The notes: a model not told the origin generated them from the letters alone. A DNA stretch of 64,000 nucleotides from a phage (GCA_012474735.1 GCA_012474735.1_4085.1), one strand, 5' to 3'. Shown: positions 30,232 to 49,191, counted from the first letter of the stretch. Program-made: numbers and translations.

Positions 30232-30441
30232 TTAATCCTTCGTTACGCTAACGATTATCTGTGTATCCCCGTAGTCCTGCCATACTTCCACGCCATCGGT
30301 CGCCCTGGTTAGTCGTGCTGTCATCTGCTTAATGGTCTTAGGCTTTAGTGGAACCTGTTGCAGTACTGTACGCATAGCATCATTGACGTTATCATGTACG
30401 CCTGCAATAGTACCTAGAACGCTGTATACTGTATAGAACAT
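30232..30441 (-). CDS. hypothetical protein (69 aa)
   Basis: ORF; RBS aggagggcatacatATG. Confidence 0.55.
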   Translation of the reverse strand: MFYTVYSVLGTIAGVHDNVNDAMRTVLQQVPLKPKTIKQMTARLTRATDGVEVWQDYGDTQIIVSVTKD

Positions 30442-30509
30442 ATGTATGCCCTCCTGATATAGTTAAGGCCGCTACAAGGCGGCCTATGATGTTTGGTGAT
30501 GTGTAACGC

Positions 30510-30911
30510 TTACAGTCCTAAGATAGTGCGTGCTTCGTTACGTTCCGTACACAGCTGCATGATGTGAGCAAGTAAGTCCTTGCTAATGTATCCGGTGTTC
30601 ATAGCTTCACGAATAGATACATCATACGCACCGAACCCCGTGCGAACGATACGCACATCATTCAGGTTAGTATTATAGATACCGCCGAGATCAACGGCTT
30701 CGAATACTACATCAACAGAATATTCATTGTTGCCATCGTGGAAGTTTTCCAGTGCAATAGTATTGGATACCGCCCAACGTTTGCAGTTTCCAATGATGCG
30801 GCACTGTTCCGGTTGGATAGTACCATTACTTACAGCGTACTCCAGTGCATCTTTACCGAAAGTCCGAGCCAGTACTAAAACGTCAGCGAAGGAATTGATT
30901 GAGAAGGTCAT
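30510..30911 (-). CDS. hypothetical protein (133 aa)
   Basis: start at MTFSINS with RBS aaggagttttatcATG; promoter and 5' hairpin upstream. Confidence 0.6.
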   Translation of the reverse strand: MTFSINSFADVLVLARTFGKDALEYAVSNGTIQPEQCRIIGNCKRWAVSNTIALENFHDGNNEYSVDVVFEAVDLGGIYNTNLNDVRIVRTGFGAYDVSIREAMNTGYISKDLLAHIMQLCTERNEARTILGL

Positions 30912-30965
30912 GATAAAACTCCTTAATTTAGGAGGGAGAACCATTTCCCCCTCTCTATGTAAAAC

Positions 30966-30993
30966 ATTATACTTGATTCTAAGTACTATGCAA
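30966..30993 (-). promoter_or_regulatory. sigma70-type promoter (TTGCAT-N16-TATAAT)
   Basis: rc reads TTGCATagtacttagaatcaagTATAAT; followed by hairpin GGAGGGAGAAccatTTCCCCCTC at 30931-30953. Confidence 0.55.
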
Positions 30994-31000
30994 GTACTTT

Positions 31001-31333
31001 TTACATTTTAATACCTGGATTCAGGTAGCGGTGAGATCCATATTCTGGATCGGTTTCGGTCCAGTACTGTAAATCGATAGTACCTTTCGCGTTAATCTTG
31101 TCTACCAGCTTATTCATCTTAGCGTATACTACGTCAGCATCGATGCGTTTAAAGCCAGTAGCTTTAGTGAAGTAGTAGTGATTTGCTTCACTATCATTAA
31201 GGATATACCGAGCACCGTTTGCAGTCTGTGCGATAATGATTGAGTATTCTACTTCCCGATCCAGACCGTCGATGAATACAGATGAAACATTGGTACGGAT
31301 GAAAGCTTTAACGATAGCGATTGAAGTACTCAT
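31001..31333 (-). CDS. hypothetical protein (110 aa)
   Basis: ORF; RBS aggagattcaaaATG. Confidence 0.6.
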   Translation of the reverse strand: MSTSIAIVKAFIRTNVSSVFIDGLDREVEYSIIIAQTANGARYILNDSEANHYYFTKATGFKRIDADVVYAKMNKLVDKINAKGTIDLQYWTETDPEYGSHRYLNPGIKM

Positions 31334-31481
31334 TTTGAATCTCCTAACTTTGTGGGCCGTCGCACCATTGCCGCCCTACGAGATACATTATCGCAGTACT
31401 GATATACTTTGTCAATACTTTTTATTAATAGTTTTCACTCCACCAGCAGATAGTTACTCACCGTTATTAACTATATATTTT

Positions 31482-31576
31482 AGATACACCTATGCACCCT
31501 GTGGGCTAGTTTTTGTCTATGCGTATATAATAGCAAAGGGACTGACCGGAGTCAATCCCTTTTTTATTCTTTTTTG
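31482..31576 (-). repeat. conserved intergenic unit, copy 1 (GCACCCTGTGGG motif plus hairpin/T-run terminator)
   Basis: ~95 bp shared with copies at 33745, 36754 and 40786; hairpin 31536-31561 then T-run. Confidence 0.55.
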
Positions 31577-31777
31577 TTAGATGATTCTCCAATCTTCTAC
31601 GATGATTGTAAGATACCGGACCAACGATTCTAGTGATTCGTGTTCTCGATAGTCTGCCGCTCCACCAGCGGTACAAGTACAGCCGATTAAACCATTTTGC
31701 AATTCCTTAATCTGTACATCGATAAGGTTGGCTTTAGCTTCTTTCAGTACTTCAACCAGGGCGAGAGCGATAGACAT
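31577..31777 (-). CDS. hypothetical protein (66 aa)
   Basis: ORF; RBS ggagtaaaacattATG; promoter 31833-31860. Confidence 0.6.
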   Translation of the reverse strand: MSIALALVEVLKEAKANLIDVQIKELQNGLIGCTCTAGGAADYREHESLESLVRYLTIIVEDWRII

Positions 31778-31832
31778 AATGTTTTACTCCAAACTATTGG
31801 CGGGAGAACTATTCCCCCGCTCTATGTAAAAC

Positions 31833-31860
31833 ATTATACATTACTGGTTAGTACTGTCAA
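31833..31860 (-). promoter_or_regulatory. sigma70-type promoter (TTGACA-N16-TATAAT)
   Basis: rc reads TTGACAgtactaaccagtaatgTATAAT; hairpin GCGGGGGAAtagtTCTCCCGC downstream. Confidence 0.55.
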
Positions 31861-31867
31861 ATAGTTT

Positions 31868-47035: not shown

Positions 47036-47257
47036 TTTGTAACCCTCATTCAGTAGTTTATGTAAGTATTATACGCTTTTAAAAACATTTGTCAAACTAT
47101 TTTATCAGGGGAGTTTTTCGTGTGCCTTACTCCTGGGCTACTTAACGGGGAGTTACTTATTTCGTTCCCCGTCCTGATGTAAAACATTATACGCCTTTAA
47201 ACATAGTTTGCAAGTACTTTTTAAAAATAGTTTTCAGTACTGAATAGTAAAAAGGTA

Positions 47258-47286
47258 TTGACAGCACTATCCAGTACTGGCATAAT
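47258..47286 (+). promoter_or_regulatory. plus-strand sigma70-type promoter (TTGACA-N17-GCATAAT), convergent with 47402-47430
   Basis: TTGACAgcactatccagtactgGCATAAT followed by ACCCACCGGGTGCACAATTGTAACTGT. Confidence 0.5.
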
Positions 47287-47401
47287 ATACCCCATGACAA
47301 CAGCTAACCCACCGGGTGCACAATTGTAACTGTACTAAACTAATTTTTCTATAGATACACTTCCGCACCCTATGGGCCACGGCTTATCTGCCAATGAATA
47401 C

Positions 47402-47430
47402 ATTATGCCAGTACTGACATTTTAAGTCAA
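47402..47430 (-). promoter_or_regulatory. minus-strand sigma70-type promoter (TTGACT-N17-GCATAAT)
   Basis: rc reads TTGACTtaaaatgtcagtactgGCATAAT followed by CCCATAGGGTGCGGAAGTGTATCTATAG. Confidence 0.5.
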
Positions 47431-47460
47431 TACCGGCAATTGTAAATATTTGTAAACTAC

Positions 47461-47691
47461 TTATACTGCAATCGCGTCCAGGCTATAATAATAATAAGTG
47501 CCGTATTGGTGTACTTTATTACCTTTTATTTCAGTACTGAATGAATCCGAACGGTTTGCATATGATGTTAATTTAAAGTACTTTGATTTGCTGATACGTT
47601 GCCATACACCACAGATCCGCTGTAAGTAAGTAGTTTTATTCGTGGTAGTATCTTTTACGGTTTTAACTTCAGTCATATACATATTAGTCAT
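47461..47691 (-). CDS. hypothetical protein (76 aa)
   Basis: ORF; RBS ctggagtaataaaaATG; promoter TTGCAA-N16-TATAAT. Confidence 0.6.
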   Translation of the reverse strand: MTNMYMTEVKTVKDTTTNKTTYLQRICGVWQRISKSKYFKLTSYANRSDSFSTEIKGNKVHQYGTYYYYSLDAIAV

Positions 47692-47778
47692 TTTTATTAC
47701 TCCAGGTTATAGGCGGGAAGAGTTCCCGCTCTCGATGTAAAACATTATACGCCTTTAAACATAGTTTGCAAGTACTTT

Positions 47779-48045
47779 TTATTCAAGTACTGCAATCTTT
47801 TTAGTACGGTACACGGTCACGCGGTTGCCCTTTCGGTCGAGCTTTATTTCTACCACTCGACGCGATACACTATCGGGACTTTTTAAGGCCGCTAACCAGT
47901 ACTGTAATGATCTGGCGGTACTACGCTTTACAATGGCCCAACGTTTACCACGTTCCGATTGTACGCCCATATCTTTAAACGTTGCCCCGTCCTGGCGTGC
48001 GGCGATCCGAGCTTGTTCACGCGTCGCAAAATACTTAATATTCAT
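47779..48045 (-). CDS. hypothetical protein (88 aa); paralog of 35348..35743
   Basis: start at MNIKYFATREQARIAAR with RBS aagggcaacagcATG. Confidence 0.6.
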   Translation of the reverse strand: MNIKYFATREQARIAARQDGATFKDMGVQSERGKRWAIVKRSTARSLQYWLAALKSPDSVSRRVVEIKLDRKGNRVTVYRTKKIAVLE

Positions 48046-48133
48046 GCTGTTGCCCTTATCGTTGGTGTATGAATAAAACACTATTATAAAGTACTATCCC
48101 CGTGCAATAGTACTTTAAATAAATTCTATTCTA

Positions 48134-48373
48134 TTACATTCCAACCATTGCCGCACGGATCGCAGTAGTGCTATATTTGAATCCGTCCGGTGTTTTATCT
48201 TGTCCAGTCTGTTCTAAAAATAACATCATATGACGGGCCGCATCATTGCGATTAGTGCTATCGTTAATAAAGTCCTGGGCCAACCGGTATAATGATTCAT
48301 CGTTATTAATCCAAAGGCTTACATTCCAATGAGTTTTGTTTTTGTGACCTAAGAACATTTTTGATTTAGCCAT
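48134..48373 (-). CDS. hypothetical protein (79 aa)
   Basis: ORF; RBS agaggattaaaaaATG; promoter TTGCAT-N16-TATAAT. Confidence 0.6.
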   Translation of the reverse strand: MAKSKMFLGHKNKTHWNVSLWINNDESLYRLAQDFINDSTNRNDAARHMMLFLEQTGQDKTPDGFKYSTTAIRAAMVGM

Positions 48374-48465
48374 TTTTTAATCCTCTTATATAGTGGGGAA
48401 CTATTCCCCACCTGATAGAAAGTATTATACTTGTTTTAACTTAGTATGCAAGTACTTTATTAAAC

Positions 48466-48828
48466 TTATTTGTAAATTTTGCCACTGTCAGCCCATACCA
48501 GGAAACGATGCATATTATCCCATGCATCTTGTTTTAAATTTAAACCGTGCAATTCCTCAGTAGTTGCCATCCCTGGTACTGGCTTACTACACACCGCGAA
48601 ATTTTCGCCCATGTACTGATAAACCATCGTTAAATCATTTGAGATCATTATATGGATCATTGAATCAAGCATCAAAGTAGCGGCGTATTGTTCACGCTTA
48701 AGCGGCAACATTGCAATAAGTTCCCGATAAGCTGCAATGTGAATTTTTACAGTTTCAGCCGGAAGACCTTTCATCTCTTCGCGGAAGTTTACCAGGTTAA
48801 GCATGATTTTAGTGATTTGAGTCGCCAT
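48466..48828 (-). CDS. hypothetical protein (120 aa)
   Basis: start at MATQITKIM with RBS aagagagattaaaacgATG; promoter and 5' hairpin upstream. Confidence 0.55.
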   Translation of the reverse strand: MATQITKIMLNLVNFREEMKGLPAETVKIHIAAYRELIAMLPLKREQYAATLMLDSMIHIMISNDLTMVYQYMGENFAVCSKPVPGMATTEELHGLNLKQDAWDNMHRFLVWADSGKIYK

Positions 48829-49191
48829 CGTTTTAATCTCTCTTAATGTGTAGCGGGAAGTGTTCCCGCTCTCGATGTAAAACATTATACGCTTTTATCA
48901 GTACGGTGCAAGTACTTTCTACAAATACTTTTAAAATAGTTTTCTTTCTATATAGGGGAACTATTATTCAGTACTGCAACCATCCAGGGGAACTATCTTT
49001 CTATATAGGAGTACTATTATTCAGTACTGAATCAATCAACCAAATCACTACTACACCCCGTAAAACGGCCTCAGACGCATTCTAACGCATTAATACACCC
49101 AAGCTATACATTTGCACCATTCCAATCATTCCAGGGCTTTACAGGCCGTTTAAACGCGTTAAATTATTTTCAATTATTTTGTTTTTAGCTA

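Follow-up and report, generated by a model that had tools for sequence, protein, structure and literature searches.

The 64,000-nucleotide stretch of DNA analyzed here (hereafter the window) comes from a phage genome (GCA_012474735.1_4085.1) and carries on its minus strand, at 30232-48885, a block of 51 small open reading frames (ORFs), 22 of which are preceded by a cassette made up of a sigma70-type promoter, a GC-rich stem-loop and a Shine-Dalgarno sequence (SD). The source phage was identified as an Asteriusvirus (121Q/PBECO4-like) jumbo coliphage, a jumbo myovirus genus with genomes of ~350-380 kb. Megablast comparison of positions 30232-40000 with GenBank phages revealed 95-97% identity over 96-100% of the query to vB_EcoM_CRJP21 (CRJP21), JP4, SP27 and slurp01 and ~90% identity to 121Q, all relatives within the genus Asteriusvirus. 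The G+C content of the window was 34.7%. In vB_Ec-M-J, the annotation places the direct terminal repeat (DTR) at 1-21525; the first 30 nt of this repeat are identical to window positions 50516-50487, and its last bases (...gggcgggtaacc) match positions ~30090-30081. The CRJP21 record likewise begins at window position 50516. Because these ends map to ~30081-50516, the block is, by sequence correspondence, the gene-bearing portion of a terminal repeat, the length of which in Asteriusviruses is ~20.7-21.5 kb (PMC11895373, PMC13070987):

~30080-50516, minus strand: DTR, ~20.4 kb, holding the entire early-gene block and all promoter-hairpin modules

This location fits the label of early block given in the initial annotation. 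Pfam matches among the 51 ORFs were confined to the products of 38542-38186 (GNAT acetyltransferase) and 38863-38606 (DksA/TraR zinc-finger protein); one further match, kinase-like, was sub-threshold, and the rest were ORFans.

Promoters were defined by a TTGACA-like -35 and a TATAAT-like -10 element placed 16-18 bp apart, on the coding strand and upstream of a gene, and sites of this kind were found throughout the block. Tallying of the ORF calls, the promoter scan and the modules listed below gave ~35 of 51 small genes with a sigma70-type promoter of their own. A consensus scan of positions 30000-49900 identified 11 perfect TTGACA-N16/17-TATAAT sites (12/12) and 8 more at 11/12, all on the minus strand and upstream of ORFs. 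In a separate scan, 15 sites at ≥11/12 were observed compared with 0.43 in dinucleotide shuffles, bearing out the earlier claim that near-consensus promoters are reused as a module. Two promoter types were distinguished. Type I reads tAAAAAGTACTTGCA(A/T)-N16-TATAAT-GTTTTACAT, and AAAGTACTTGCA occurs 17 times on the minus strand of the block; type II reads TTGACA...AGTACTG-TATAAT. All 17 type I promoters have a hairpin downstream (15 canonical, 2 in long leaders), compared with only 7 of ~19 type II promoters. The consensus of the promoter region is tAAAAAgTACTTGca...G-TATAAT-gtTTTACATcGAG. The 27 nt upstream of the -35 element were 83% AT compared with a background of 62%, and an AAAAAG tract adjoins the -35; resemblance to the published UP-element consensus was judged by eye. 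What was previously proposed as an UP element amounts to an AT-rich region with an A-tract, and the long block quoted for it, 37 nt, is exact in only two copies (33686-33722 and 40728-40764), which are part of a 167-nt repeat; shorter variants lie upstream of a few other promoters.

The canonical leader hairpin was present in 22 of the 51 genes. The initial annotation had described the whole module as belonging to nearly every gene and as reused about 30 times, which is about right for the promoters and generous for the hairpin. The 22 modules are as follows (type I here being AAAGTACTTGCA-N17-TATAAT and type II TTGACA-N16-TATAAT, 12/12):

48852-48918, minus strand: type I; -10 at 48889-48884; hairpin AGCGGGAA-CAC-TTCCCGCT at 48870-48852; ATG at 48828
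48392-48458, minus strand: type I; -10 at 48429-48424; hairpin GGTGGGGAA-TAG-TTCCCCACT at 48412-48392; ATG at 48373
47713-47778, minus strand: type I; -10 at 47749-47744; hairpin GCGGGAA-CTC-TTCCCGC at 47729-47713; ATG at 47691
46351-46418, minus strand: type I; -10 at 46389-46384; hairpin GCGGGGA-GTGGT-TCCCCGC at 46371-46351; ATG at 46330; CRJP21 homology breaks at 46351
45988-46056, minus strand: type I; -10 at 46027-46022; hairpin at 46011-45988; ATG at 45971
45153-45219, minus strand: type I; -10 at 45190-45185; hairpin GGGGAGAA-ATGG-TTCTCCCT at 45172-45153; ATG at 45134; CRJP21 homology resumes at 45226
44689-44751, minus strand: type I; -10 at 44722-44717; hairpin at 44708-44689; ATG at 44669
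44366-44434, minus strand: TTGATA-N16-TATAAT; -10 at 44405-44400; hairpin at 44388-44366; ATG at 44347
43060-43128, minus strand: type I; -10 at 43099-43094; hairpin GAGGGGGAA-ACGG-TTCTCCTTC (two G·U pairs) at 43081-43060; ATG at 43038
42742-42808, minus strand: type I; -10 at 42779-42774; hairpin GGGGAGAA-ATGA-TTCTCCCC at 42761-42742; ATG at 42724
41271-41330, minus strand: type II; -10 at 41308-41303; hairpin at 41290-41271; ATG at 41252; CRJP21 homology resumes at 41315
40670-40764, minus strand: type I with the 37-nt AT-rich block (40764-40728); -10 at 40710-40705; hairpin AGGGGAAA-CGG-TTTCCCCT at 40694-40670; ATG at 40653
40236-40295, minus strand: type II; -10 at 40273-40268; hairpin at 40255-40236; ATG at 40215
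38125-38189, minus strand: degenerate -10 TTATAG (38160-38155); hairpin GGGGAA-ACATC-TTCCCC at 38143-38125; ATG at 38113
37502-37561, minus strand: type II; -10 at 37539-37534; hairpin at 37521-37502; ATG at 37484
36184-36242, minus strand: type II; -10 at 36220-36215; hairpin at 36202-36184; ATG at 36162; module duplicated around an extra gene in CRJP21
33630-33722, minus strand: type I with the 37-nt AT-rich block (33722-33686); -10 at 33668-33663; hairpin at 33649-33630; ATG at 33610
33327-33385, minus strand: type II; -10 at 33363-33358; hairpin GGGGAGAA-TAG-TTCTCCCC at 33345-33327; ATG at 33304
32777-32843, minus strand: type I; -10 at 32814-32809; hairpin at 32795-32777; ATG at 32757
32445-32508, minus strand: type I; -10 at 32479-32474; hairpin GGGGGAG-ATATC-CTCCCCC at 32463-32445; ATG at 32426
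31800-31860, minus strand: type II; -10 at 31838-31833; hairpin at 31820-31800; ATG at 31777
30932-31000, minus strand: type I; -10 at 30971-30966; hairpin GAGGGGGAA-ATGG-TTCTCCCTC at 30953-30932; ATG at 30911

The geometry of these modules was nearly constant. The hairpin begins 12-13 nt after the -10 element (range 8-14) and not at about 8 nt as first reported; this corresponds to predicted position +5/+6, with +1 set as the A of a conserved CAT located 8 nt after the -10 in line with the usual sigma70 spacing. Under this assignment the predicted unpaired 5' segment averages 4.6 nt (range 1-7). The stem consists of 7-9 GC-rich base pairs in a hairpin of 17-25 nt, with predicted folding energies of -10.6 to -18 kcal/mol and variable loops (CAC, CTC, ATAT, ACATC, GTGGT), and is separated from the ATG by 16-23 nt holding an A-rich linker and the SD, giving a predicted leader of ~44 nt in total. 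The stems quoted as examples in the initial annotation were all present. Because of its fixed position downstream of its own -10 element, the hairpin is predicted to lie in the transcript leader, in agreement with the earlier placement.

A search for promoters with a strong hairpin 6-16 nt after the -10 element returned 25 matches (21-22 unique) at 30-49 kb, whereas 30 shuffles averaged 0.33 matches and never gave more than 2. The plus strand of the entire window yielded one match, and all matches on the minus strand lay within 30.9-50.1 kb. A model-free repeat search recovered a 21-copy family spanning the hairpin to the -10 element. The copies are paralogous (60-100% identical over 46-100 nt), and the ~100-bp cassette recurs every 300-1300 bp. 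Analysis of the region 28-52 kb with Rfam 15 gave no family match, only a sub-threshold Trp_leader hit (E = 0.85) at a terminator, and ARAGORN detected no tRNA or tmRNA. AUG triplets in the hairpin loops were also considered as possible alternative start codons; although three share the frame of the ORF, most do not, and just 2 nt separate GGAG from AUG, so this possibility was set aside.

To count base pairs, a MAFFT alignment of the modules was unusable, as it placed hairpins with 3-nt and 4-nt loops out of register. A covariance model was built from seven ungapped seeds and searched against the whole window with filters off; all significant matches lay on the minus strand at 30.9-48.9 kb. 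In a 65-row alignment of the window modules with relatives from GenBank and IMG/VR, 99% of cells paired, five of eight pairs showed double changes and 60 cells were compensated. None of 500 shuffles reached the observed covariation score, paired percentage or number of double-change cells, and structures slid by 1-3 columns as a control were only 59-81% paired. The alignment of window copies alone gave a similar result (98.8% paired, 38 compensated cells). Dissimilar stems all retained pairing, including AGCGGGAA/TTCCCGCT, GGTGGGGAA/TTCCCCACT, GGGGAGAA/TTCTCCCC, GGGGGAG/CTCCCCC and AGGGGAAA/TTTCCCCT. The covarying stem-loop reported previously was thus supported, with 98.8-99% of cells paired and 4-5 of eight pairs doubly changed.

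These data bear on whether the hairpin has any function of its own. It could merely hitch-hike in a promoter cassette spread by duplication and gene conversion, as might be suspected from the paralogy of the copies and from the ~13 units in the block that have promoters without a hairpin. However, a wide variety of stem sequences all retain pairing, with double changes and G·U intermediates among them, and pairing also persists in distant phages with diverged flanks, where neutral decay would break it. We consider passive spread very improbable.

The strand on which pairing is maintained was examined by strand-neutral scoring anchored on the promoter, which counted 17 G·T, no T·G and 6 A·C or C·A mismatches. 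The G-rich arm comes first in every copy, and one stem pair of the 65-row alignment forms a graded series (GC 22, GU 19, AU 21). The excess of G·T over A·C, this series and the invariant arm orientation together favour folding of the sense RNA. It is thus likely, if not proven, from these sequence patterns that the hairpin folds at the RNA level in the sense transcript. A dimeric operator bound by protein on the DNA is unlikely and was rejected, as the half-sites change together to keep complementarity and do not keep one sequence.

A scan for intrinsic terminators revealed that none of the 22 leader hairpins is followed by a T-run or qualifies as a terminator, while seven canonical terminators were identified in the same region:

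35307-35325, minus strand: intrinsic terminator of the same stem family as the leader hairpins (GGCGGGA-TCAG-TTCCCGCC then TTTTTT)
44908-44886, 44030-44009, 43302-43281, 36834-36807, 31562-31535 and 40872-40845, minus strand: other T-run terminators

A terminator reading of the leader hairpin was rejected on account of the missing T-run and its location after its own promoter, since from there it would cut off its own gene. A weaker form of this reading comes from the promoter-early stem-loop (PeSL) cassettes described in the T4-like phages RB49/phi1, PST/T4 and nt-1/KVP40 (Arbiol et al. 2010, PMC2839356; Comeau et al. 2014, PMC4122927). As proposed for the PeSLs of RB49/phi1, the stem-loop might stop or damp read-through from the upstream cassette and so insulate neighbouring units. 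PeSL stem-loops are polyG/polyC, a T-run is not obligatory, and one of them reduced downstream lacZ as much as rrnB T1 (PMC2839356); the cassettes described here are tandem and closely spaced, and the true terminator at 35325-35307 shares their stem family. Attenuation is nevertheless unlikely, as a hairpin 12-13 nt after its own -10 element would damp its own gene equally, the stem-loops of PeSLs are placed within the promoter or ahead of it, and the leader hairpins lack T-runs (0/22) whereas the phage ends units with canonical T-run terminators.

The cassette is not limited to the window. Between 5 and 34 matches per genome were found in Asteriusviruses and in the Salmonella phages Munch, 7t3 and PHA46, which share ~29% average nucleotide identity with Asteriusvirus (Munch was examined by eye and with the covariance model only). 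It was also found in 121Q and in several ~350-kb jumbo-phage contigs from IMG/VR. The phi92-like phage ALITA (PP359570, 90615-93672) carries homologues of window genes 48373, 43038, 40215, 42420 and 35743, each preceded by a promoter, ACAT(A/C)GAG, a GC hairpin and an SD, with differing stems (AGCGGGAA, GGCGGGAAA, GCGGCA, GGCGGTGG). The same promoter-hairpin-SD layout precedes homologous small genes in an rV5-like phage (rV5_ev168), and homologues of the 79-aa product of gene 48373 occur in 237 phage records, mostly rV5-like, phi92-like and 121Q-like. In all, at least five small early genes of the window have homologues behind like cassettes in phi92-like and rV5-like phages of ~140-150 kb. 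The sequence relationships would imply exchange of whole cassettes between unrelated coliphage groups.

Comparison with close relatives provided further evidence of gene turnover. Collinearity with CRJP21 is interrupted by four indels. At one, the four-gene segment 46351-45226 is replaced by a single gene, with one junction where a hairpin ends and the other where the following promoter begins; a second has its junction at 41315, inside a promoter spacer; a third, in CRJP21, places an extra gene between two copies of the 36254-36156 cassette, a duplication that is, from its sequence, a signature of recombination between cassettes; and the fourth is located at a terminator. Compared with 121Q, there is an extra gene in the leader at 36540/36527, and the promoter-less gene 37919-37569 is absent. 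Four of these six indels have a junction inside a cassette, and cassettes fill most of the intergenic DNA; the pattern is therefore suggestive of cassette-bounded gene turnover rather than a statistical enrichment. We also observed that an 18-nt SD/start region, ACTGAGGATTATCTAATG, is exactly duplicated on the minus strand (45990-45969 and 45690-45667) before the adjacent genes 45971 and 45669, the latter without a promoter; this looks like a scar of recombination or duplication.

The inverted repeat, as a cruciform or single-stranded DNA hairpin, and its ~100 bp of surroundings might on this evidence act mainly as recombination sites that move small-gene cassettes. The junctions at 46351/45226, 41315, 36156/36254 and 36540/36527 all fall inside cassettes, one of them duplicated; homologous cargo genes travel with the same type of cassette in three phage groups; one crossover in an RB49 PeSL was mapped to the loop; and the antisense strand folds almost as stably as the sense strand. 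Whole-gene indels would, however, end in or near cassettes regardless of mechanism where these occupy most of the intergenic space, homologous recombination requires a repeat but not a hairpin, and the G-rich-arm-first orientation and the G·T excess fit selection on the sense RNA. We regard a primarily DNA-level role as improbable.

The conservation of the hairpin also raised the question of specific recognition. As a shared operator, it would be bound by a phage or host RNA-binding regulator that controls translation, decay or elongation across the early regulon, for example as a shut-off at the early-to-middle switch or as a nut/put-like element. Sequence conservation is far higher in the apical part, GAA-(A)TGG/TAG-TTC, than in the promoter spacer or the linker, and this part recurs in Escherichia, Salmonella and metagenomic jumbo phages; the position near the SD is fixed, and the 5' arm has a GGAG-like sequence. 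Yet the loops vary, the stems differ so widely in phi92-like and rV5-like phages that a generic structural role fits better than specific recognition, the hairpin is missing from ~13 early promoters, and neither a candidate binding protein nor a matching Rfam family was found. There is little likelihood, in our estimate, that such an operator accounts for the hairpin. A more far-reaching version, in which a phage-encoded or virion-delivered factor would use a common RNA operator to switch about two dozen early mRNAs post-transcriptionally as a terminal-repeat regulon, with both the system and its cargo genes common to the three unrelated 121Q-like, phi92-like and rV5-like groups, seems distinctly doubtful.

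We favour the reading that these modules are early-expression cassettes for host RNA polymerase in which the hairpin acts as part of the leader RNA to raise and standardise expression, and we assign this reading a probability of roughly 55%. The block would represent the terminally redundant early region of the Asteriusvirus, of the host-takeover type, with most small genes forming separate transcription units read by the host sigma70 polymerase from very strong promoters. In 22 units, the mRNA would start with a standard leader composed of ~5 unpaired nt (AUCGA/AUAGA), an autonomous GC hairpin, an A-rich linker, the SD and AUG, and the hairpin would make expression of the following short ORF high and independent of context. 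It might do so by guarding the transcript against 5'-end-dependent decay, by holding the G-rich and C-rich segments of the leader in a self-contained fold that leaves the SD free, or by both means. Modelled SD accessibility was 0.69 with the hairpin and 0.54 without its 5' arm, since removal of that arm frees the C/U-rich 3' arm for pairing with the SD. As a by-product, the repeated ~100-bp cassette would supply homologous sequence through which small genes could be gained, lost and exchanged, as with PeSL cassettes.

Several points weigh against this interpretation. Fitting of the covariation alignments to the model, together with the paralogy of the copies, means that the pairing numbers overstate independence; most G·T pairs fall at one stem position and paralogues may interconvert, so that the 17:6 ratio does not represent 23 independent events. 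The mean folding energies of sense and antisense strands are nearly equal (-13.4 vs -12.4 kcal/mol), which is compatible with pairing at the DNA level, and the modelled difference in SD accessibility is small. A literature search found no transcription start site (TSS), timing or half-life data for this phage group. The predicted overhang of 1-7 nt is at or beyond the length compatible with 5' protection of the ompA type. Scanning RNase E is reported to pass simple stem-loops with ease (PMC9943677), which also weakens the idea of the hairpin as an obstacle to RNase E scanning. Finally, the hairpin is not essential for expression, given the ~13 promoters in the block that do without it. Some other known elements were considered and set aside: the stems are too short for an RNase III site, and N4-type hairpin promoters and lambda boxB differ in geometry from these modules, which have a sigma70 consensus, 8-9 bp stems and variable loops.

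Further promoters and leaders of the DTR include the following:

31354-31415, minus strand: promoter TTGACA-N17-GATAAT (31415-31387) before gene 31333, whose leader contains a GC hairpin of non-canonical form (GGGCGGCAATGGTGCGACGGCCC)
42464-42492, minus strand: hairpin-less, TG-extended promoter TTGACA-N17-CATAAT before gene 42420
45473-45446, 39983-39955, 39713-39686 and 38599-38572, minus strand: similar hairpin-less promoters
35816-35788, 35034-35006, 34758-34730 and 32182-32154, minus strand: the rest of the similar hairpin-less promoters
47068-47220, minus strand: double-promoter leader with a type I promoter (47213-47186), a ~85-nt leader with an ACGGGG...CCCCGT hairpin and a second 12/12 promoter (47095-47068), before gene 47035
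36555-36705, minus strand: paralogue of this double-promoter leader, before gene 36521
43830-43957, minus strand: diverged copy of the same leader, before gene 43806

The three paralogous ~85-nt leaders, located between a type I and a second perfect promoter, share the pattern ACATCAGGACGGGGAAC...CCCCGTTAAGTAG.CCAGGAGTAAG...GAAAAACTCCCCTGATAAAATAG and may each encode a small RNA or act as a regulatory leader. The first promoter inside the left end of the DTR (50151-50084, minus strand; TTGACA-N16-TATAAT, 12/12) is followed by a different, longer hairpin (AGATGAGTTGCTGCGAACAATTCATTT) and reads into ~1.2 kb that has no convincing ORF and contains several motif units, described below, and plus-strand promoters.

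Terminator hairpins (AAAGGGATTGACTCCGGTCAGTCCCTTT) at 31562-31527, 36834-36799, 40872-40837 and ~33836-33800 (minus strand) contain a -35 element, TTGACT, within the stem, followed by a TG-extended TATTAT -10. These overlapping elements have the classical PeSL layout and drive units with a ~35-nt motif, CTA(R)CCCAC(A/C)GGGTGCA.A..TGTATCTAT, which occurs in nine copies, all in the DTR, against a chance expectation of 0.06:

31493-31506, 33756-33769, 36765-36778, 39121-39134, 40798-40811 and 47364-47377, minus strand: copies of the ~35-nt motif
44834-44847, 47307-47320 and 49462-49475, plus strand: copies of the ~35-nt motif

On both strands, every copy has a sigma70-like promoter of its own ~21-28 nt upstream and is not accompanied by an ORF. 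Analysis of the nine copies revealed no convincing conserved fold and no Rfam match. The units may represent small non-coding transcription units or sites for protein binding.

Two more features of the window were recorded. The palindrome AGTACT occurs 262 times compared with ~21.6 expected from base composition (positions 1-64000, both strands), a 12-fold excess that makes it by far the most over-represented 6-bp palindrome; it is distributed nearly window-wide, coding regions included, prefers the context C-AGTACT-G and frames promoters (AAAGTACT-TGCA, AGTACTG-TATAAT), as it also does in Salmonella phage Munch. The window lacks several GC-rich palindromes. A literature search turned up no explanation for the AGTACT excess. 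Just outside the DTR, at ~27885-30012 on the minus strand, lies a tandem array of translationally coupled genes of ~65-85 aa with overlapping start and stop codons, the 3' ends of which have a common conserved ...CAGGA(A/G)...TATG... segment. In CRJP21 this array runs on as ~30 such genes (gp_50-gp_82). None of the genes in this paralogous family has a promoter of its own, which sets the array sharply apart from the early-gene block.

Taken together, these data provide a regulatory map of the otherwise unannotated ~20-kb DTR of 121Q-like phages, with ~35 promoters, 22 standard leaders and true terminators, and mark ~50 ORFans as probable host-takeover genes. A compact promoter/5'-hairpin/SD cassette that is naturally reused across several coliphage families also offers ready parts for expression design and a testable case for the effects of leader hairpins on mRNA fate.

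Comparison with known systems places the cassette among several partial precedents. The pre-early genes of T5 and the host-takeover module of SPO1 likewise occupy a terminal redundancy full of small genes of unknown function with strong host-type promoters and strong SDs; to our knowledge, a conserved leader hairpin is not part of the description of either. The E. coli ompA and T7 gene 10 leaders carry a stable, mRNA-stabilising 5' hairpin upstream of a strong SD; this hairpin begins at or within ~2-4 nt of the 5' end, unlike the hairpins described here, where the overhang predicted from the presumed TSS is 1-7 nt (mean 4.6). The T7 gene 10 leader GGGAGACCACAACGGUUUCCC resembles in style AGGGGAAACGGUUUCCCCU at 40694-40670. 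The related jumbo phage CBB has RpoD-like promoters with an UP-like AT-rich element, which are concentrated before short hypothetical ORFs and on its terminal repeat and are suspected to be early (PMC5259590). CBB thus shares the sigma70-consensus promoters and the UP-like element, but only 18 promoters were reported genome-wide, and no leader hairpin is described in that paper, where the words "hairpin" and "stem-loop" do not occur (PMC5259590). The rV5 paper lists sigma70 promoters only, and in the searched literature on Asteriusvirus, RaK2-like and rV5-like phages we found sigma70 promoters and no prior description of the leader hairpin.

The closest described system, compared by layout and components, is the PeSL cassette. 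Both consist of a ~100-bp intergenic cassette with an AT-rich region, a near-consensus sigma70 promoter, a G-run/C-run stem-loop, an SD and a start codon, and both are repeated many times in a region of small ORFans. PeSLs lie in hyperplastic ORFan regions and are associated with indels between close relatives, an association that the junctions described above suggest for the Asteriusvirus cassettes. The two differ in the placement of the stem-loop. In PeSLs it lies upstream of, within or overlapping the promoter (AT region, -35, spacer, -10 or just before +1) and is read as a terminator for upstream transcription, whereas in the Asteriusvirus it is fixed 12-13 nt downstream of the -10 element, inside its own predicted transcript; in none of the 22 modules does it precede the predicted initiation site. 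Exceptions resembling PeSLs are the elements at 31562-31527, 36834-36799 and 40872-40837, which have the -35 embedded in a terminator hairpin. The phage is also not T4-like, and its cassettes are confined to the DTR. The module that the initial annotation called synthetic-looking is indeed reused, but the term is descriptive, and PeSL cassettes are its natural precedent (PMC2839356, PMC4122927). The cassette is thus real and reused; it varies a design that has been described before in other large phages, and it extends the PeSL idea of regulatory cassettes as gene-shuffling units beyond the T4-like phages, with the stem-loop placed differently.

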